A stretch of 63,979 bases of DNA, filler included, from a bacterium (GTDB lineage: Bacteria > JBBIVP01): the NCBI GenBank assembly GCA_037439705.1. It is 8 parts of 8 records of this genome, joined end to end, with 100 filler letters (N's around TTAATTAATTAA, not from the genome) between each part and the next. Parts side by side here need not be neighbours in the genome. Positions count along the whole stretch, not along the records: positions 56,261 to 63,979 come from JBBIVP010000105.1; 7 more parts are not named here. The stretch is one strand, 5' to 3'. The position numbers and the translations under genes were made by a program. This document shows, piece by piece, positions 8,077 through 63,979 of the stretch (positions are counted from its first letter, which is position 1; every line of letters begins with the position of its first letter). The notes below the pieces were generated by a model. That model did no database searches. It was not told the origin of the DNA and worked only from the letters and a program-made list of their open reading frames with translations.

Positions 8077-8176
8077 NNNNNNNNNNNNNNNNNNNNNNNN
8101 NNNNNNNNNNNNNNNNNNNNTTAATTAATTAANNNNNNNNNNNNNNNNNNNNNNNNNNNNNNNNNNNNNNNNNNNN
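8077..8176. other. Artificial contig linker
   Basis: N44-TTAATTAATTAA-N44, with stops in all six frames. Confidence 0.99.
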
Positions 8177-16213: not shown

Positions 16214-16313
16214 NNNNNNNNNNNNNNNNNNNNNNNNNNNNNNNNNNNNNNNNNNNNTTAATTAATTAANNNNNNNNNNNNNNNNNNNNNNNNNNNNNNN
16301 NNNNNNNNNNNNN
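16214..16313. other. Artificial contig linker
   Basis: N-TTAATTAATTAA-N, 100 nt. Confidence 0.99.
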
Positions 16314-24348: not shown

Positions 24349-24448
24349 NNNNNNNNNNNNNNNNNNNNNNNNNNNNNNNNNNNNNNNNNNNNTTAATTAA
24401 TTAANNNNNNNNNNNNNNNNNNNNNNNNNNNNNNNNNNNNNNNNNNNN
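24349..24448. other. Artificial contig linker
   Basis: N-TTAATTAATTAA-N, 100 nt. Confidence 0.99.
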
Positions 24449-32476: not shown

Positions 32477-32576
32477 NNNNNNNNNNNNNNNNNNNNNNNN
32501 NNNNNNNNNNNNNNNNNNNNTTAATTAATTAANNNNNNNNNNNNNNNNNNNNNNNNNNNNNNNNNNNNNNNNNNNN
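32477..32576. other. Artificial contig linker
   Basis: N-TTAATTAATTAA-N, 100 nt. Confidence 0.99.
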
Positions 32577-40395: not shown

Positions 40396-40495
40396 NNNNN
40401 NNNNNNNNNNNNNNNNNNNNNNNNNNNNNNNNNNNNNNNTTAATTAATTAANNNNNNNNNNNNNNNNNNNNNNNNNNNNNNNNNNNNNNNNNNNN
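40396..40495. other. Artificial contig linker
   Basis: N-TTAATTAATTAA-N, 100 nt. Confidence 0.99.
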
Positions 40496-48292: not shown

Positions 48293-48392
48293 NNNNNNNN
48301 NNNNNNNNNNNNNNNNNNNNNNNNNNNNNNNNNNNNTTAATTAATTAANNNNNNNNNNNNNNNNNNNNNNNNNNNNNNNNNNNNNNNNNNNN
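48293..48392. other. Artificial contig linker
   Basis: N-TTAATTAATTAA-N, 100 nt. Confidence 0.99.
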
Positions 48393-56160: not shown

Positions 56161-56260
56161 NNNNNNNNNNNNNNNNNNNNNNNNNNNNNNNNNNNNNNNN
56201 NNNNTTAATTAATTAANNNNNNNNNNNNNNNNNNNNNNNNNNNNNNNNNNNNNNNNNNNN
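56161..56260. other. Artificial contig linker
   Basis: N-TTAATTAATTAA-N, 100 nt. Confidence 0.99.
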
Positions 56261-56749
56261 ATCTGCTCCTGAATCCATTATTCTTTTGGCGGTTTCTCCG
56301 AAGTTCCTTATCAGTTTTTTTATCTCCTCAATCTCCATCTCCTTCGGAGGCTCCCTCATCGCAAAGCAGGGAATGGAGGAAGGCGCATATAATGGAAGAA
56401 GGGATGTAGAAGAGGTTGACTGTCTACCTGGATGCCATATCTGGAAAAATATCTTTGTGCCATAACCTTTTATCGTTTCCACAAGTTTTTTTGCCCCATC
56501 AATCCATCCTTCGCGAAAGGGTTGTAAAAAGGTCTCATCTGTAACTGCGCTTCTGTCTACACACTGGGCTTCAACGATTATGAGACCAACACCTCCTTGA
56601 GACCTCCTTTCGTGATAGGCAATGAGAGCATCCGTTATGAGCCCATCCTTCCCCAATTTTGTATGATGTGATGTAGAGACAATCCTGTTTTTTATAGTTT
56701 TATCCTTCATATTTATGGGGGAGAAAAGGTTTGGAAAAAAATTTTTCAT
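56261..56749 (-). CDS. NADH:flavin oxidoreductase / Old Yellow Enzyme family (3' truncated)
   Basis: LFSPI..IKNRIV, YHERRSQGGVGLII.E, QIWHPGRQ, APS. Confidence 0.9.
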
Positions 56750-57719
56750 TTCTTTCTCAATGAATTTAGAAAATTTTTAACCCTCTCATAGAGCGGAAAG
56801 AAGCCAAGCCTCTGCGCTGTTTCTGAATTTACGACATCTGCCCTTTCCGTAAGAATGGATAGAGTTTCATCATCAAGACGAATTTCCTTCATTCCATTTT
56901 TTATCAATTCTTTCTGTGTCCTATCGTTCAGTTCCTTTATCCTTTCCCTTAAAATTGGAAATATCTCCTTCCAGGCATTAACGATTAAAATTCTGTCATT
57001 TTCATTGAGGGCGTTAAAGAATCCTCTATTAATCAAAATTCCTCCGCCTGTAAATGTGCATGGCGGGAAAAGAAAGTAATTCACCCTTCCAGCCCATTGA
57101 AGGGAAAGAAGGGTATATGGGGGGGAATAAACCGTCTCCACTATTCCCATTGGTAACGCATTATAAACATCAACTATCTGAAGCATTATTGGGGAAGCGG
57201 AAAGAACCTTCTCAACGAAGTTCTTTGCGTGAAGGTCACCCTGCCAGACCCAATACTTTGTGTTCCTCAATTTCTCAAGTGTGGAAATGTCTTTTGAGGA
57301 ATAAAGAAATACCTGACCAGTCTCTACCCAGCCAAGAAAAACCACGCCCTTATTTTCTCCTGATTTTTTTATATCCTCAAAGAGAAAATCTCTGGTCATG
57401 TTCCATTCATCATAATCTCTGTAAAAAAAGAGGAAATTAAAAATTCTTATCTCTGGGATGAATAAAGAAATCCCGAATTCTGTAAAAGCGCCTGCATGAA
57501 GCTGACCCATTCGCATCTTTCTTGCCATATCAGATTCATCACCCATTATCCCTCCGGGATAGATGAGAATCCTTCAGACTTATCTTCCACAATCCTTTTG
57601 AAATCATAATATGCTTCATACCAGGCGCCTCCTTCAGGAGCCAATGTCCCCAGTTTTATAATCTTCTGCTCAAATGTAAAAAATAAAGAAATAATAAATA
57701 TCACCTCCTTTAACCCCAT
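56746..57719 (-). pseudogene. dctP: TRAP substrate-binding protein DctP, frameshifted near 57572
   Basis: A 57-codon upstream ORF (IKLGTLAPEGGAW..KSEG) joins in another frame to ILIYPGGIMGDE..KMRMGQL. Confidence 0.8.
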
Positions 57720-57725
57720 CTTTAT

Positions 57726-58211
57726 TTAATCACCAATTTCCTTAAGCCACTCTTCAAAGGCTTCAATGTCAGGAAGAAAATCAAAGATGGAAGGATATCC
57801 CGGTGGAACGCACTCCACCTCAAGAAGGGTGAAGCAGGACGGGCAGTAGTATTCCCTTATTTCCACCCAATCAGGGTGAGGGGTCATAAATTCAGGGAAC
57901 ACCTCAAGAAATTTATCCATTGTATCCCTTATGTAAACCCTCGCCTTTTCTTTCCAGTTCTTCCTGTAATCGCCAAATTCAAAGCCGCAGTCACACTTTA
58001 TAACCCTCTCGCCATTTTTGTCCACTATAAAGAGGTGGAAGGAAAGAGGAAGAATTATTTTTTCTGGAAACCTGACCCTTTGCTGAAGAATATCCCTGAC
58101 AAGAAAGAACCTCTTCCTGTCCTTTTCAGATGTTATTATTTCCTTCAGCTTTTGCCAGGGAAGTTTACCATCTATGAGTTCCTCAATAGTTTTTCTGTCA
58201 TACTCTTTCAT
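57726..58211 (-). CDS. acxC: Acetone carboxylase gamma subunit-like
   Basis: KD..RF, IILPL..HLFIV, KCDCG.EFGDYRKNWK, REYYCPSC, PPGYP..DFLPDI. Confidence 0.9.
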   Translation of the reverse strand: MKEYDRKTIEELIDGKLPWQKLKEIITSEKDRKRFFLVRDILQQRVRFPEKIILPLSFHLFIVDKNGERVIKCDCGFEFGDYRKNWKEKARVYIRDTMDKFLEVFPEFMTPHPDWVEIREYYCPSCFTLLEVECVPPGYPSIFDFLPDIEAFEEWLKEIGD

Positions 58212-60364
58212 TCTATCCTAAAATCCTCATTCAATCCGTAAAATTCTTAAAATTCCTTCTTATACCTGGGAGAAAGTTCAAAACTTTCCTTGAACATCTC
58301 CCTCACATGTTCAGGAAGGGACTTCAATTTTTTAAGTTCTATCTTCTTAAATTCTTCAAAACTTATAGATTTTTTTCGCCTTTCTTCCCTTATCTTCTTT
58401 CTCCTTTCGTTTGTACTTTCTAAATCCACAATAAACTTTCCATTGACTTCCTTTGCAACGACACCGAAAACCTTCTCTGCTATATCCTTTGTATATATCT
58501 TTTCATCAAGGTCTTCCCTCACCCTTTCAGGCTCCCTTTCAATAGGGTCACCGCATCCAGGACCACCAAAAAGGATATAATGGATTAAATCGTAATCTTT
58601 AAATTCTGTTGGAAATAGAACCCCCTCTTTATTCCTTATCACTTCCCCTTTTATGAGATTTTCCATCTTTCTTTCCGCTGGAATCTCATCATCAATGGGA
58701 TAATCCATCTTATTCTCAAATATCTCCTTGAGATTCGTATTATGTGCTCTTAGAAGATAACCTGCATTTAAAGGATAACCTCCAAATATTCCGCCTCCGA
58801 GAAGATGGCATAGGCTTACAAGATAAATCTCAAAGTCCTTTACATTTCTTGCAATTCTTATACATTCCCATCCAGAACCTCCCCTGTATCTTCCATATCC
58901 TGCAGTATTTGGCTTAACTTTCCTTGAAAGATAGGGAAGACCGAGCTCAAGAAGTTCCCAGATTTCAGCGTCTCCCTGGTCCGATTCTGGATTCCACATA
59001 GCATATCCCCAATCAAGCCCATCCTTAATTGCGCTTGCTCCGAGACCAACGCATGAAAGTTCAAAGTTTGCTACAGGAAAATAAATGTTAAGAACTGTGT
59101 GAATACCACCTCCTGCTATCATTGAGCCTGTTGGTCCATATCCTGCTATTACCTCCTCCCAGTATCCTCTTGCGAAAAATCCCCTTGAAAGGCATGGAAA
59201 TAGTGCTCCGTATGCAGGTATTAAAAACATCCATGGTGTCCCGAAGGATGCAGTTGGGTCTTTTGTATTGCACCAGCTTCCAGGTGGGAAGTTGTATTCC
59301 ATAGCAAGATAACTCCCATCATTTACCCTTCCGTCATAGGCAATAACCTGAGACAAAAGAACCCAGAGTCCTCCCTGCATGGCTGTCTCAGAACAGTTGA
59401 AGGGATGGTATCCAGGCTTTGACGCACCGTCAAAGGAAAGTTTTATTTTTCCATCCTTTGTTATTTCTACCTCCATAGGCGCATGCATGAGTATGTCCTT
59501 TGATGCCTTCTTCAATGGATGTTTACCTTTAAACGGAATTGCTGCAAATGAAACAGCCCTGTATCTTCCTGGGATGAGCCTTTCCTTTACCCTCTGAATA
59601 AAAATTCTCCTTCCATCCTCTATGACCTCTCTGACAAACTCTTTATAATAGTCAATCCCCTCTTCATCTATGAATTTCAAAACTGCATCCCTTATAATGT
59701 AGCACCCTGCTACCCTGCACTTTTCGTCAAGGTCCCAGTAAAGAGGGGTCCTAACTGCCCTCTGACACCTTATTCTATGGTCTTTATGAATTTTATGGTT
59801 TGAACCAATTTTTTCGCAGACAAGATACAATCCATCTTCAAACCTTGAAGTTGAAACAATCGGGTCATGCCCAGGAGTTGTAGCACCTATATCAATCTCG
59901 TGAGTTACCCCTCCAGCCCATCCTATAATCTCTCCTTTATAAAAAATTGGAATCATAGTGTGAACATCCGTTGGATGCACATCTCCTATAAGCGGGTCAT
60001 TATTTGAAAATATATCACCGTCGTTTATTCCTGGGTCATCCTCATAATCATTCCTTATCATCCACTTTATTGCTTCAGACATGGTGTGAACATGAACGAT
60101 AATTCCAGTAGAAAGAACTATGGAATCCCCCTCTGGAGTATAAAGGGCAAAACAGAGTTCCCCTATGTTTCTAACAATCGGGGAGGCGCTGATGTGAAGC
60201 GCAGTTTCCCTTGCAGCAACCACAGCACCCCTCAATCTCGCAAAAAACCTCTCAAATTTTAATGGTTCTTCTTCCTTTAATTTCAATTCTTTTAAGCCAT
60301 AATAAAATCCACTTTCCTTGAAAATTTTTTCAGAATATAAAAGCATTTCTTTCAGTTTCATCAT
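58208..60364 (-). CDS. acxB: Acetone carboxylase alpha subunit-like (hydantoinase B family); in-frame TAA at 58247-58249, 13 codons before the probable natural stop
   Basis: ASPIV..GELCF, STGIIVHVHTM, metal-site HPTD and THEID, WNPE.D.GD.E.WE, GGPGCGDPIER. Confidence 0.9.
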
Positions 60365-62475
60365 TCCCTCCCCAGATGAAATATTCTGTATTTATCAAGG
60401 TAGGCTTTATAGCCATGAGGAATTAAGAATGTGGTGGCAGGAGCCTCTATTATGGATGGTCCCTTTATCTCAGCTCCGGGTTTAAGTAAGTCCATCTCAT
60501 AAACGGATGCGCTCCACCACTCATCCTTCCAGTAAATTTTTCTTCTTCCTTTCAAAGCGGATTCGACTTTAAAAGGAGCTTCCTTTTCTTCTGGAATCAC
60601 TGGTTTCACTGTGGGATAATTTCCTATCATTTGAGCCTTTGTGATTATGTATCCAGCTTCCTTTGACTTTGCAGCCCTTGCAAATATCCTTTCAAAAAGC
60701 ACATCAAATCTCTCCGCAAGCTTTATCATCTCTTCACCGGAATTTATTCCATAGGCATTTACTTCAAGGTCATCAAGCATGCCTCTATATTGCATCCTTA
60801 CATAAGGGATGAAAATTATTTTTTCTTCATCAAATCCCGACCTCCTGAATTCCTCCCTTATCCTTTCCATTAATCTTCCCCATGCCATTGAAAGATATGC
60901 GAAAACGAAATCCGAATTGCTGAAATCGGGCTCAAGGATGAGGTCAACGCTCTCATCAAAACGAATTGCAAAATCTGCGCAGGCGCATCCAAATGCTGAA
61001 AAAGCAGGCGCCCATGTTGGGATAAGAACATCCTGAAAATTCAATCCCTCTGTATAACCAGCCACATGAAGCGGACCACCTCCTCCGTAGGATATGAGAA
61101 CATAATTTTCGGGCGCAAAACCAAGTCCAAGTATCTGGGCATAAAGGTAATCCTTCATAATTTGATTTACCAATTCATATATTCCAAAAGAAGCCTTCTC
61201 AACAGAAATGGAAAGTTTTTTTGCAACCTCCTTTTCCACATAAACCTTCGCCCTTTCAACATCAAGTTTCACATCCCCTCCGAGGAAGTAATCAGGATTG
61301 AGATACCCCAGAAGAAGATTGCAATCCGTTATAGTGGGCGTCTCCAGTTTTGCTTCTGGATAGCATGTTCCAATTTTTGCTCCTGCACTATCTGGACCAA
61401 GAAGAACTTTATCAGTTGCCGGGTCAAGCCTTATGAATGTCCCACATCCTGCTCCTATTGAATCCATAACAATCGCAGGAATTGTCAGAAGTAGCCTTGC
61501 TATACGAGGTTCTGTTGTGATTGTATAATGCCCCTCCGTGATAAGCCCAACATCAAAGGATGTCCCACCAACATCGGTGCATGCCACATTCTTTAACCCG
61601 AGGAGGTCAGCCACAAATTTTGAGCCCATTATTCCTCCAACAGGACCTGATATTAAAGCGCTCACAAGCCATTCACTATCAGGAGAAATGCTCGTTCCAT
61701 AGGAAGTTATTATGCGAATCTCGCCCTTTGCGCCCAGTTCCTTCAGGGTATTTCTCATAATTTTTACCTGCTCGTTCAAGCCCCTCGCACAGGTAACCTC
61801 AACAAGAAGGGTGTTGAGCCTTGGAAGTTCCCCCCTTATAGGATTATGCCTTGACGAAAGATATACGGGTATCTCAACTTTTCTTTTTGAAAGTTGATCT
61901 TTTATTATTGCTTCTGCTTCAAGTTCATGCTGTGGATTCCGATAAGAAAACAAAAAGCACACACAAATAGCCTTGACATTATTTCTCAAAAAATAGTCCA
62001 CAGCATCTATCACATCCCTCTCGTAAAGTGGTATAAAATCAGAACCCATAAAATCAATTCTCTCTCTCACCCCCTTTATCAAGTGAAGGGGAACAAGCGG
62101 CTCATCATAATGATGAGAAACAGCGTGGAGCCTTTCTTTGTATGGATAATCAAGGTATGACTGAACACCCCTTCCAAATCTTAGAATGTCCTCAAATCCT
62201 GCTGTTATTATCACCCCCACAGGTCCTTCAAGTTTCCTTGTAAGAAGTTTATTTATGAGGGTAGTCCCTGCGTATGTCACAATCTCTACTGCCCTCACCC
62301 CTTCTTCAAAGGGGATATTTCCTCTTTTAAAAGCATCCCTCAAAGAATTGAGAAATCCAACCGTTTCATTTTCAGGAGTGGTTTTGGCTTTTCCTATGTA
62401 GAACCTTCCCTTTTCGTCCACCACAAATGTATCGGTCATCGTTCCGCCTGTATCTATTGAGACTATGTATCCCAT
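60361..62475 (-). CDS. acxA: Acetone carboxylase beta subunit-like (hydantoinase A family)
   Basis: IDTGGTMTDTF, GKAKTTP, SGPVGG, DVGGTSFD, YGGGGPLH, WAPAFSAFGCACAD. Confidence 0.92.
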   Translation of the reverse strand: MGYIVSIDTGGTMTDTFVVDEKGRFYIGKAKTTPENETVGFLNSLRDAFKRGNIPFEEGVRAVEIVTYAGTTLINKLLTRKLEGPVGVIITAGFEDILRFGRGVQSYLDYPYKERLHAVSHHYDEPLVPLHLIKGVRERIDFMGSDFIPLYERDVIDAVDYFLRNNVKAICVCFLFSYRNPQHELEAEAIIKDQLSKRKVEIPVYLSSRHNPIRGELPRLNTLLVEVTCARGLNEQVKIMRNTLKELGAKGEIRIITSYGTSISPDSEWLVSALISGPVGGIMGSKFVADLLGLKNVACTDVGGTSFDVGLITEGHYTITTEPRIARLLLTIPAIVMDSIGAGCGTFIRLDPATDKVLLGPDSAGAKIGTCYPEAKLETPTITDCNLLLGYLNPDYFLGGDVKLDVERAKVYVEKEVAKKLSISVEKASFGIYELVNQIMKDYLYAQILGLGFAPENYVLISYGGGGPLHVAGYTEGLNFQDVLIPTWAPAFSAFGCACADFAIRFDESVDLILEPDFSNSDFVFAYLSMAWGRLMERIREEFRRSGFDEEKIIFIPYVRMQYRGMLDDLEVNAYGINSGEEMIKLAERFDVLFERIFARAAKSKEAGYIITKAQMIGNYPTVKPVIPEEKEAPFKVESALKGRRKIYWKDEWWSASVYEMDLLKPGAEIKGPSIIEAPATTFLIPHGYKAYLDKYRIFHLGRE

Positions 62476-62478
62476 CCC

Positions 62479-63156
62479 TCACTCATTCCACTCTTCAACA
62501 ATTTTTCCGAACACAAAATTCATGTCAAGAATCGCTGTATTTGCTGTTAGAACCTGCTCCGGAAGGAGTGGCTCAAAATCTTCAAGCTCTGTGGAATAAA
62601 TGTTTAATGAAAGAAGACGAGCCTCTTTTATCTTCTTCCACTTTAAAGGCGGATCCATTTCTATAAGTTGCCTTTTCACCCATTTCCCCTCAGGGTCTAT
62701 AATTCTTTTCAAAACATAGTAGTTTGCTGTCTGATAGGGGATGGTATCCGCATCTCCTGTTTCTTCTATCTCCATTGACACAAGGCATTTTCCATTTTTT
62801 AATAACTGACATCTTGTAAAATTGCCTTTCTGATAGAAAGAAAACTCTCCCATTCTCTTCGGGAAACCCCATACATCCCTTCCGCCGAGGTAGGCTTCAT
62901 CAGTGGTCACATACACAAGAGGTGTGTAGAGACCAATTTTTCCTCCTCTTTCCACCACTATAAAAACCAGAAGTTCATCGTAGGGACCGATAGAAGAAGA
63001 TTTGTAAGATGCAAAAGTGAAAGAGGCAATTTGGGGTGATGGAGCATTTAATCCCTTTGGAAGGTGAAAGGGCTTTTTGAGGGTAAAAGAACATGCCCAT
63101 ATCTTTGCATCTGGATACTCCCACGGAGGGAGTGGTGTAACACAGTACTCCTTCAT
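62479..63156 (-). CDS. Acetoacetate decarboxylase-like (ADC superfamily) protein
   Basis: PLPPW.Y, GPYDE, YVTTDEAYLGGRDVWGFPKR with the Schiff-base Lys position retained. Confidence 0.85.
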   Translation of the reverse strand: MKEYCVTPLPPWEYPDAKIWACSFTLKKPFHLPKGLNAPSPQIASFTFASYKSSSIGPYDELLVFIVVERGGKIGLYTPLVYVTTDEAYLGGRDVWGFPKRMGEFSFYQKGNFTRCQLLKNGKCLVSMEIEETGDADTIPYQTANYYVLKRIIDPEGKWVKRQLIEMDPPLKWKKIKEARLLSLNIYSTELEDFEPLLPEQVLTANTAILDMNFVFGKIVEEWNE

Positions 63157-63860
63157 TTTACACCTCCTTTTTTATTTCTAATTTTATCAAGTCTATCCAT
63201 AATCATCCTGTAATGAAGAGGAGAGAGCATTTCTGAAACAAAAAGAACAGCAGTTTTTCCGAGTTCAGCAATCTTATCCGGTGGAAGCCTTCCGAAGGTA
63301 ATCCTGTTGAAAATTTTGAATTCCCTGTCAATTAATGATTCCATAGCGTGAACGAAAACCTTCAGCTCTTCAATCTGAAACCCATTGTCTTCGTTTATAC
63401 CACTTTCCCTCATCCTCGCTACAAGCGAAAGGATTTTTAAATCCTCTTTTAAAAACCCTCCACCTTTAAAAGAAAGAATCCCTATTTTCACGAGCCTCCT
63501 TATAAATTCTTCAGATAAACCGCTCTTTTCCTTCATCTCCTCCATCCTGTATTTCTTCTTTTTTGAAAACTCCTCAAGGATAGAGAGGTCAACCCTCAAA
63601 AATTCATCCTTTTCAATCACTTTCTTTATTACTTTTAGAGGCAGAAATCTCTTCTCCTGAAGTTCTTTGATTTTAACGACTCTGTCAACAGTGGATGGAG
63701 AATAATATATCATCCTTTTGTTTTCCCTTATTACTTTTGGTAGAAGCCCCATCTTTAAGTAATGATGAACAGTTGCTTTTGTAACACCTGTCTTTTTGAT
63801 TACCTCTCCTATTTTAAGATATCCGTCAGCCTTTTTGTTATTTCCTTTTATCCCTTTCAT
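63153..63860 (-). CDS. MerR-family transcriptional regulator with two HTH-like units
   Basis: LKIGEVIKKTGVTKATVHHYLKMGLLP; second unit YRMEEMKEKSGLSEEFIRRLVKIGIL. Confidence 0.9.
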   Translation of the reverse strand: MKGIKGNNKKADGYLKIGEVIKKTGVTKATVHHYLKMGLLPKVIRENKRMIYYSPSTVDRVVKIKELQEKRFLPLKVIKKVIEKDEFLRVDLSILEEFSKKKKYRMEEMKEKSGLSEEFIRRLVKIGILSFKGGGFLKEDLKILSLVARMRESGINEDNGFQIEELKVFVHAMESLIDREFKIFNRITFGRLPPDKIAELGKTAVLFVSEMLSPLHYRMIMDRLDKIRNKKGGVK

Positions 63861-63864
63861 AATC

Positions 63865-63919
63865 TATAATGTATAAGGTTTCACATTATAATTTTACAGA
63901 AAAAGAAATCAAATGTCAA
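63865..63919 (-). promoter_or_regulatory. Sigma-70 promoter followed by a 26-bp inverted-repeat operator
   Basis: TTGACA-N17-TAAAAT (63919-63891), then TATAATGT-N10-ACATTATA (63865-63890). Confidence 0.75.
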
Positions 63920-63979
63920 GGTGGCGGCGTTCCTCAAAAATAATCTCTATGAAAAGGGTTTGTTTCCTCAAAATAATTG

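Follow-up and report, generated by a model that had tools for sequence, protein, structure and literature searches.

Organisation of the operon

The window analysed here, a 63,979-nt stretch from a bacterial genome assembly (GCA_037439705.1), ends in a separate 7.7-kb contig, the last of eight (positions 56261-63979). This contig carries seven genes, all on the minus strand, which encode a MerR-type regulator, a protein related to acetoacetate decarboxylase (ADC-like), the three subunits of an acetone carboxylase (Acx), a DctP-like binding protein and a protein of the old yellow enzyme (OYE) family. The features of the unit, from the promoter downstream, are the following:

63914-63919, minus strand: -35-like hexamer TTGACA of the operon promoter, read from the sequence
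63891-63896, minus strand: -10-like hexamer TAAAAT, spaced 17 nt from the -35 (the spacing is 18 nt in the relative L002, described below)
63867-63888, no strand assigned: inverted repeat TAATGT-N10-ACATTA, candidate operator, between the -10 and the merR start
63153-63860, minus strand: merR, first gene of the unit, 235 amino acids; MerR_1 at 3.5e-19 (Pfam)
62479-63156, minus strand: ADC-like gene, 225 amino acids; PF06314 (ADC) at 1.8e-26
60361-62475, minus strand: acxA, nucleotide-binding carboxylase beta subunit, 704 amino acids; Hydantoinase_A at 7.5e-66 plus its N- and C-terminal domains
58247-60364, minus strand: acxB, carboxylase alpha subunit, 705 amino acids; Hydantoinase_B at 1.5e-76
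57726-58211, minus strand: acxC, carboxylase gamma subunit, 161 amino acids; Acetone_carb_G (PF08882) at 8.2e-39
56746-57719, minus strand: dctP-like gene, frameshifted; DctP (PF03480) at 4e-21
56261-56749, minus strand: OYE-family gene of FadH type, first 163 codons, cut by the contig end; Oxidored_FMN at 2e-27, profile positions 1-167 of 342

The genes are closely packed, with 4-nt overlaps at the merR/ADC-like, acxA/acxB and dctP/OYE junctions, and gaps of 3 nt between the ADC-like gene and acxA, 35 nt between acxB and acxC and 6 nt between acxC and dctP. A metagenome relative, L002, aligns colinearly with this piece along 7,699 columns, with 81.1% nucleotide identity. Its unit comprises merR, the ADC-like gene, acxA, acxB and acxC in the same beta, alpha, gamma order, an intact dctP-like gene (328 amino acids) and a gene for a 656-residue enzyme with Oxidored_FMN and Pyr_redox_2 domains, and it continues with two more genes, which encode a 475-residue FAD_binding_4/FAD-oxidase_C (GlcD-like) protein and a Fer4 plus CCG (GlcF-like) protein cut by the end of the locus. 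In L002 neighbouring genes either overlap or lie no more than 9 nt apart, the GlcD- and GlcF-like genes included.

The promoter site of L002 scored 11 of 12 in a consensus scan. The inverted repeat has a single match in the window and a single one in L002, at the same place, with 20 of its 22 positions identical, including the whole N10 spacer; the block from the -35 hexamer to the repeat is near-identical in the two, while the flanks diverge. As judged from these junctions and signals, the unit is one operon with a conserved sigma-70-type promoter and a MerR regulator at its head, and the TAATGT-N10-ACATTA repeat would be its operator. The original prediction had described merR-adc-like-acxABC-dctP-OYE as one coupled unit. 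The coordinates and Pfam matches bear out the order and the families, and the overlaps and short gaps bear out the coupling, with the qualification that in the window copy dctP is frameshifted and the OYE gene truncated. Conservation of the cluster, which it had put forward as a check, was also found, since L002 is colinear at 81% nucleotide identity with a synonymous divergence (dS) above 1.

In pairwise codon analysis of the window against L002, dS ranged from 1.1 to 1.9, with synonymous sites near saturation. The ratio of nonsynonymous to synonymous divergence (dN/dS) was lowest in the cluster for the ADC-like gene (0.028), followed by acxB (0.032), acxC and the N-terminal part of the OYE gene (0.042 each), acxA (0.051), the C-terminal part of dctP (0.108) and merR (0.153). 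Thus, the ADC-like gene is at least as constrained as acxB, the catalytic carboxylase subunit.

The MerR protein is free of cysteine and its matches to the metal-sensor models of NCBIfam fall far below their cut-offs, so that a metal or thiol signal is unlikely. The expected contrast with the sigma-54 activator AcxR was confirmed: the acxABC genes of Xanthobacter are controlled by sigma-54 and AcxR (PMC2244623), whereas the present operon has its own cysteine-free MerR in that place. By eye, MerR residues ~113-160 seem to hold a second, degenerate MerR-like helix-turn-helix; the best NCBIfam match there was an actinobacterial FtsR model, far below its cut-off.

The carboxylase and its partner proteins

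All three carboxylase subunits match acetone carboxylase better than acetophenone carboxylase (Apc) of Aromatoleum aromaticum (5L9W), a member of the same ATP-dependent carboxylase/hydantoinase superfamily. The alpha subunit scored 636.7 bits to chain 5m45_A of the Xanthobacter acetone carboxylase and 172 to 5l9w_A of Apc; the beta subunit scored 675.6 bits to 5m45_B and 336 to 5l9w_B; and the gamma subunit scored 148.6 bits to 5svb_C and 43 to Apc. Hydantoinase-type chains scored lower still, the ranges were 51-264 bits for 6yra and 77-176 for N-methylhydantoinase, the NCBIfam models for Apc and caprolactamase gave scores far below their cut-offs, and no extra Apc-type subunit, either a second HyuA-like or an epsilon subunit, is encoded in the operon.

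In the Xanthobacter enzyme, Mn is bound by alpha-His150, Asp153 and His175 with a switching Glu89, and Zn by gamma-Cys74, Cys76, Cys124 and Cys127 (PMC5543143); the E89A variant of acetone carboxylase is inactive (PMC12250083). In the alignments, the window proteins have the identical residue at all eight places. The motifs singled out in the original prediction therefore have counterparts in the alpha-subunit alignment, namely HPTD for His150 and Asp153, THEID for His175 and GELC for Glu89, and both cysteine pairs of the gamma subunit fall on Cys74/76 and Cys124/127.

The operon resembles the acxABC system of Xanthobacter autotrophicus Py2 (5SVB/5SVC, 5M45) in its gene order and in near full-length matches, as well as in the Mn and Cys4 Zn ligands. 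It differs in its additional ADC-like, DctP-like, FadH-type and (in L002) GlcD/GlcF-like genes, in an alpha subunit of 705 instead of 776 amino acids, and in alpha residue 65, an arginine that is the counterpart of alpha-Glu85. In the ligand-free state of the Xanthobacter enzyme, Glu85 forms a pair with beta-Asn578, and it contributes to the gating of the Mn site (PMC5543143). Counted by eye, the alpha subunit has 58 identities with Xanthobacter in the first 103 aligned columns. Since the Acx subunits of Helicobacter and Xanthobacter share 50-68% identity (PMC2244623), the distance of the window enzyme is within the range accepted for acetone carboxylases, comparable to that of Helicobacter pylori acxABC. 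Among 8,000 candidates scored, 1,688 alpha-subunit homologues were found at E<=1e-50; of those listed, two are close (93% and 65% identity) and the others are 51-58% identical, many bearing the names of Asgard-archaeal or Thermodesulfobacteriota metagenome-assembled genomes (MAGs). By these alignments, AcxABC is a genuine acetone-type carboxylase, which should make acetoacetate from acetone (possibly also butanone), bicarbonate and ATP; no sign of a substrate larger than these two ketones was seen. The idea of Acx running backwards to make ATP, which is raised in the part of PMC5264521 available, was rejected by reasoning on energetic grounds; that part of the source contains no description of an acetone carboxylase operon of this kind.

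The ADC-like protein was modelled with AlphaFold2 from a 50-sequence alignment, with a predicted local distance difference test (pLDDT) score of 95.5, and a 13-sequence profile was scored against PDB sequences. Template modelling (TM) scores and root-mean-square deviations (rmsd) of the model, and bits of the profile, were:

3c8w, 3bgt and 3bh2, true decarboxylases: TM 0.87-0.91; rmsd 1.7-2.2 Å; 99, 82 and 84 bits
MppR: TM 0.77-0.81; rmsd 3.3-3.7 Å; 26 bits
Sbi00515: TM 0.73-0.80; rmsd 3.5-4.6 Å; 62 bits
Swit_4259 (5upb): TM 0.80; rmsd 3.2 Å; 29 bits
3cmb: TM 0.82; rmsd 3.2 Å; 25 bits

Foldseek and the profile rank these PDB relatives alike. In its fold, its Schiff-base lysine, its Glu76 counterpart and its GR[ED] motif, the protein is like the acetoacetate decarboxylases of Clostridium acetobutylicum (CaADC) and Chromobacterium violaceum (3BH2, 3BGT) and that of Legionella (3C8W), to which it is 15-20% identical. 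In the alignment with 3bh2, Lys115 of CaADC corresponds to Lys100, Glu76 to Glu61 and Lys116 to Arg101. However, in the hidden Markov model (HMM) alignment Arg29 of CaADC is replaced by Ala17 and Glu61 of CaADC by Phe46. Ho and co-workers are said to have reported in 2009 that in CaADC the carboxylate of the substrate is bound by Arg29 and that Glu61 has a part in catalysis. Across 50 relatives, Lys100, Glu61, Arg93 and the GR[ED] motif are invariant (50/50), whereas no relative has a basic residue at position 17 (Ala in 26, a gap in 3, and Val, Cys, Gln, Thr, Ile, Gly, Leu or Tyr in the remainder) or an acidic one at position 46, where 48 have a hydrophobic residue and two have Ser or Thr.

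As aligned, then, the protein is a decarboxylase scaffold that has kept its Schiff-base machinery and lost two of the four residues taken to define the acetoacetate site. The Schiff-base lysine noted beforehand is indeed retained (FPK, Lys115 of the Clostridium enzyme), and the doubt already voiced about canonical activity gains weight from the two replaced columns. There is also the position of the gene, directly ahead of a carboxylase that would undo the canonical reaction: a canonical decarboxylase co-translated with Acx would amount to an ATP-burning futile cycle, which by reasoning argues against such activity. We therefore regard a canonical acetoacetate decarboxylase as unlikely here, in which case the futile-cycle paradox probably does not arise.

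The ADC fold also supports aldolase-dehydratase chemistry, according to the titles of PDB entries 4zbt, 6eej and 4jmd. In having a Schiff-base lysine on this fold and no basic residue at the Arg29 position, the window protein is like the MppR-type aldolase-dehydratases (Sbi00515, 4ZBT/6EEJ; MppR, 4JM3-4JME), in which the lysine serves no decarboxylase function, and its N-terminal PPW.Y motif resembles that of Sbi00515. It is unlike them in its lower scores (TM 0.73-0.81; 62 and 26 bits), and those enzymes (258-266 residues) contain insertions. According to their PDB titles, the MppR-like enzymes act on pyruvate. Our literature search returned nothing on Sbi00515 or on aldolase-dehydratases of the ADC superfamily; ADC-related proteins have been proposed as catabolic aldolases in an archaeon (PMC7820114).

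The DctP-like protein scored 156.5 bits with the NCBIfam model TRAP_S1 (cut-off 50), and its intact L002 form scored 103.6 bits with Pfam DctP; it thus belongs with the binding proteins of transporters of the tripartite ATP-independent periplasmic (TRAP) type. In the L002 form, the segment TKYWVWQG aligns with ..K[IV]R[VT].. in homologues, and TGPVFL aligns with.G.R.., 20 residues upstream. Both positions are Arg in five of the five best PDB homologues, and Trp and Val in the L002 protein, the window copy being alike. Each of the 20 homologues aligned, the most distant at 25% identity, has W, F or Y at the first position, which points to a whole arginine-less subfamily. In SiaP numbering the two arginines are presumably Arg127 and Arg147, 20 residues apart. 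The columns are identified as those of the two carboxylate arginines by their invariance in the five homologues and by this spacing, which is near the 21 residues between Arg156 and Arg177 of IseP, where two conserved arginines hold the acid group (PMC11668362).

An equivalent of Arg147, shown to be the carboxylate selectivity filter, is present in 5,943 of 6,142 DctP family members (96.8%), and proteins without it bind atypical ligands: Csal_0678 of Chromohalobacter salexigens binds ethanolamine, and Tp0957 of Treponema pallidum has a hydrophobic pocket (PMC4646407). The present protein is like these two in belonging to the ~3% of the family without an Arg147 equivalent, with an aromatic or hydrophobic replacement (same source). 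Neither was among its 58 PDB matches at E<=1e-5, so that they are not close relatives. The replacement of both arginines by Trp and Val favours a ligand that is not a carboxylate but rather neutral, as had been guessed. Close homologues are P0153 (98% identity), P0154 (84%) and P0155 (73%), and the next match is at 33%. By eye, these close copies begin with a short hydrophobic stretch that lacks a classical A-x-A cleavage motif, unlike the distant homologues, so the signal peptide looks short and atypical. The gene stands amid genes for cytoplasmic enzymes, with no Q/M membrane genes in view.

The OYE-family protein of L002 has as its best PDB matches FadH (1ps9, 232 bits) and 2-naphthoyl-CoA reductase (NCR; 6qkg, 220 bits). 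Like these, it combines an N-terminal Oxidored_FMN barrel with a C-terminal FAD/NAD(P) domain (Pyr_redox_2) and carries the CxxCxxxCx11C motif, at residue 343, which marks it as an FMN/FAD/[4Fe-4S] enzyme. The similarity is moderate only, and the operon contains no CoA ligase or transferase, so that a CoA-ester substrate is not indicated. The window fragment, the first 163 residues, is 86% identical to L002. The 'ene-reductase' of the original prediction is thus not a classical OYE but an Fe-S flavoenzyme of the FadH/NCR type, as judged from the domains, cysteine motif and PDB matches of the L002 form. For the GlcD-like protein of L002, matches were to D-lactate dehydrogenase 8jdb at 130 bits, LctD at 113 and glycolate oxidase at 108. 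The protein encoded next to it contains a CCG domain and a cluster motif of ferredoxin type; the two look like a GlcD/GlcF pair.

Relatives and genomic setting

Close relatives of the ADC-like protein are few. A word-indexed search of 5.8 billion proteins found three, at 92, 78 and 62% identity, and when 1.84 billion cluster representatives were searched exhaustively with HMMER there were 443 hits at E<=1e-3, of which 21 reached 1e-10 and 2 reached 1e-30. An atlas search with the protein returned generic ADC-family clusters only. Scanning metagenomes yielded nine loci: L002 (91%), a second copy of the Archaeoglobus contig described next, and seven distant loci (L004-L010), which have no acx, OYE or dctP homologue. 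One ADC-like relative (P0001) and the DctP-like relative P0154 each have a longest contig of 37,237 nt, so that both probably lie on one contig, a third linked copy of the cluster.

In species genomes, a single-sequence scan of the contigs found no relative of the ADC-like protein, and a profile scan picked up a single locus, L001, from a MAG with the title Archaeoglobus sp. JdFR-41. There, the ADC-like gene (38-40% identity) is followed after a 44-nt gap by a FadH-type gene (38% identity), whose product has the CxxCxxxCx11C motif at residue 355. The surroundings (L001 1-16480) contain genes for a short-chain dehydrogenase/reductase, an MFE-2-type hydratase, MaoC, three acyl-CoA dehydrogenases, an Asp/Glu-racemase-like and a luciferase-like protein, as well as two HGD-D genes (2-hydroxyacyl-CoA dehydratase / benzoyl-CoA reductase type), so the pair looks like part of a CoA-ester catabolic island. 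The same MAG has two acx clusters, both on other contigs. One, on contig C17 (L013 6015-13390), has genes for a SnoaL-like protein, acxABC and an acetyl-CoA-synthetase-like ligase, in that order; on contig C91 (L014), acx occurs in a third layout. No DctP-like homologue was found in this genome with our query, and its GlcD-like hits are unlinked paralogues at 28-35% identity. Among 401 genomes of the phylum of this MAG, ADC-like hits at E<=1e-8 occurred in 24, and exceeded 62 bits only in the Archaeoglobus MAG; of the 30 loci returned, only its own has an OYE homologue within the 1.5-kb flanks. Since the ADC-like and FadH-type genes are adjacent in Archaeoglobus and acx lies elsewhere, this pair is the part conserved across domains, and its adjacency to acx is specific to the lineage of the window.

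The window as a whole is made of eight contigs of ~8 kb each, longest first, joined by N44-TTAATTAATTAA-N44 linkers. The artificial joints lie at:

8077-8176
16214-16313
24349-24448
32477-32576
40396-40495
48293-48392
56161-56260

Because the operon piece is a separate contig, the DNA left of 56260 is unusable as genomic context, and findings on different sides of a joint are not physically linked. An Rfam scan of the window gave no match. The last ~45 nt of the contig (63925-63979) resemble a multi-copy repeat: they occur once within the window, and in one sequencing run several contigs of higher depth (16-53) match this stretch only, with both flanks diverging. The repeat may be a candidate of CRISPR type or repetitive extragenic palindromic (REP) type that broke the assembly. 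Upstream of the unit in L002 are unrelated trpF-, trpB-, rpiB- and Rsm22-like genes. On the opposite strand, L002 1-5450, upstream of the operon region, encodes a 1,180-residue protein that weakly matches an adhesin domain, and another, no shorter than 637 residues, built of RCC1 repeats.

A possible route to acetone and its alternatives

Acetone carboxylases have usually been studied as stand-alone entry enzymes, followed by activation of acetoacetate. The present operon points to an undescribed breakdown route for a neutral ketone-type compound, and we infer that its accessory genes form an upstream branch rather than a counter-acting decarboxylase plus unrelated passengers. The reading that we favour, tentatively and at somewhat less than an even chance, is that the accessory enzymes cleave a larger neutral carbonyl compound to acetone, which Acx traps. 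The arginine-less DctP-like protein would bind the neutral compound, and the FadH-type Fe-S flavoenzyme would interconvert the saturated ketone and its enone. The Lys-Glu pair of the ADC-fold enzyme could then carry out Schiff-base hydration and retro-aldol cleavage, releasing acetone, while the GlcD/GlcF-like dehydrogenase, seen in L002 only, might oxidise a hydroxylated intermediate or co-product. Acx would finally carboxylate the released acetone to acetoacetate. The gene content and order, their conservation, the metal ligands, the ADC fold and the missing residues are shown by the sequences, alignments and model; the substrates, the direction in which each step runs and the membership of the genes in one pathway are all part of what is proposed. 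The recurrence of adjacent ADC-like and FadH-type genes in the only distant relative found, the Archaeoglobus MAG, was counted in favour of this reading. In its full form, an entire pathway that degrades a neutral enone or hydroxy-ketone independently of CoA and in which an ADC-fold hydratase/retro-aldolase releases acetone for capture by Acx, the proposal is distinctly more doubtful.

Several observations weigh against this reading. In the window, dctP is broken: relative to L002, a 10-nt deletion in an A-rich stretch near 57574/57575 shifts the frame, so that the DctP match begins at profile position 41 and the missing N-terminal part is found in another frame just upstream. The break must be either recent or an assembly error; in one sequencing run (a share of 0.06 of the stretch), eight short pieces at 80% likeness were found, none across the frameshift site, and no RNA run containing the stretch was listed. 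No DctQ or DctM gene was found among the open reading frames of L002 scanned with Pfam, over 20.7 kb ending inside the GlcF-like gene. Neither the window nor these 20.7 kb contain a gene for acetoacetate activation, unlike the Helicobacter pylori cluster, in which scoAB and a thiolase gene stand beside acx. The GlcD-like protein is closest to 2-hydroxy-acid dehydrogenases, which is awkward for a neutral substrate, and the substrate is known for none of the accessory proteins. It must also be taken into account that the ADC-like model is nearer to the true decarboxylases than to MppR and Sbi00515 in both backbone and profile. Moreover, Ala17 is followed by Lys18, a position at which 20 of the 50 relatives have Arg, so that an alignment slip of one residue would put a basic residue at the Arg29 site. 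Finally, the adjacency of ADC-like and acx genes is confined to one narrow lineage (the window, L002 and the probable third copy), and in the Archaeoglobus MAG the two acx clusters are on contigs other than that of the ADC-like/FadH-type pair.

These last facts bear directly on the possibility, to which we give a modest chance, that there is no shared pathway: acxABC would serve ordinary acetone utilisation, the ADC-like and FadH-type proteins would form an independent module, and the DctP-like and GlcD/GlcF-like genes would be passengers of a lineage-specific super-operon. The Archaeoglobus pair does stand alone in its CoA-ester island, with one of the acx clusters elsewhere having its own ligase of acetoacetate type and with no DctP-like homologue detected; likewise, L004-L010 lack acx, OYE and dctP homologues, and one of 30 phylum loci has an OYE homologue. 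However, in the window lineage acxABC and dctP are inserted so as to split the pair, with the close junctions seen throughout L002, and the gene order has been kept through near-saturated synonymous divergence, with the ADC-like gene as constrained as acxB. A single conserved promoter and candidate operator ahead of merR also speak against independent modules, and the presence of acx in the Archaeoglobus genome means that the functions co-occur there at the genome level.

A further alternative, unlikely in our view, takes the ADC-like protein for a genuine decarboxylase of beta-keto acids whose substrate site is unusual, either shifting a carboxyl group together with Acx or acting as a relief valve for acetoacetate. 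In the former case, a branched or blocked beta-keto acid would be decarboxylated to a methyl ketone, whose methyl group Acx would re-carboxylate to give a linear beta-keto acid. The proximity of fold and profile to the genuine decarboxylases 3c8w, 3bgt and 3bh2, the invariance of the Schiff-base lysine, the Glu76 counterpart and the GR[ED] motif in 50 of 50 sequences, and the basic Lys18 next to the Arg29 position are what one would expect of such an enzyme. Against this, in none of the 50 relatives is the Glu61 counterpart acidic or the Arg29 counterpart basic, an arginine-less binding protein is ill-suited to a keto-acid substrate, and with acetoacetate itself the result would be, by our reasoning, a futile cycle. 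We know of no need for a carboxyl shift of this kind.

The version of the original prediction, in which the Acx-like enzyme itself carboxylates a larger ketone delivered by the binding protein and tailored by the ADC-like and OYE enzymes, was not borne out and is quite improbable: although the binding protein suggests a neutral, probably hydrophobic ligand, the alpha subunit is only ~52-58% identical to the bulk of its homologues (none of those listed being named after an experimentally characterised enzyme) and the alpha-Glu85 counterpart is Arg, the bit scores against acetone carboxylase are two to four times as high as those against Apc (636/676/149 against 172/336/43), all metal ligands are kept, the layout is alpha-beta-gamma with no second HyuA-like or epsilon subunit, and the Acx of Helicobacter, an accepted acetone carboxylase, is similarly distant from that of Xanthobacter (50-68% identity; PMC2244623).

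A route from leucine was also considered, from D-2-hydroxyisocaproate through 2-oxoisocaproate and 4-methyl-2-oxopent-3-enoate to pyruvate and acetone. It is possible and would use every gene, but was set aside because the arginines that would hold a carboxylate are missing from the binding protein, and because acetoacetate decarboxylases resemble the ADC-like model more than the pyruvate-using aldolase-dehydratases do.

Returning to the proposal that acetone is released upstream and trapped by Acx, the operon presents an acetone carboxylase as part of a conserved unit of nine genes, where three of its partners break with the rule of their own family: the ADC-fold protein is without two residues of the catalytic site, the TRAP binding protein is without its carboxylate filter, and the ene-reductase is of the Fe-S FadH type. 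An 'acetoacetate decarboxylase' annotated beside an 'acetone carboxylase' should not be equated with a futile cycle or with acetone production. The ADC-like protein belongs to a new ADC subfamily, with five close members found, to which the operon assigns a possible first function. The ligands of arginine-less TRAP binding proteins were stated to be unknown in 2015 (PMC4646407), and if the partners cooperate, the operon gives a concrete metabolic context for finding one. If the proposal is true, the arginine-less DctP-like protein would be the first TRAP-type binding protein shown to recognise a ketone, and a decarboxylase fold would have been put to use in supplying the very enzyme that undoes its ancestral reaction.

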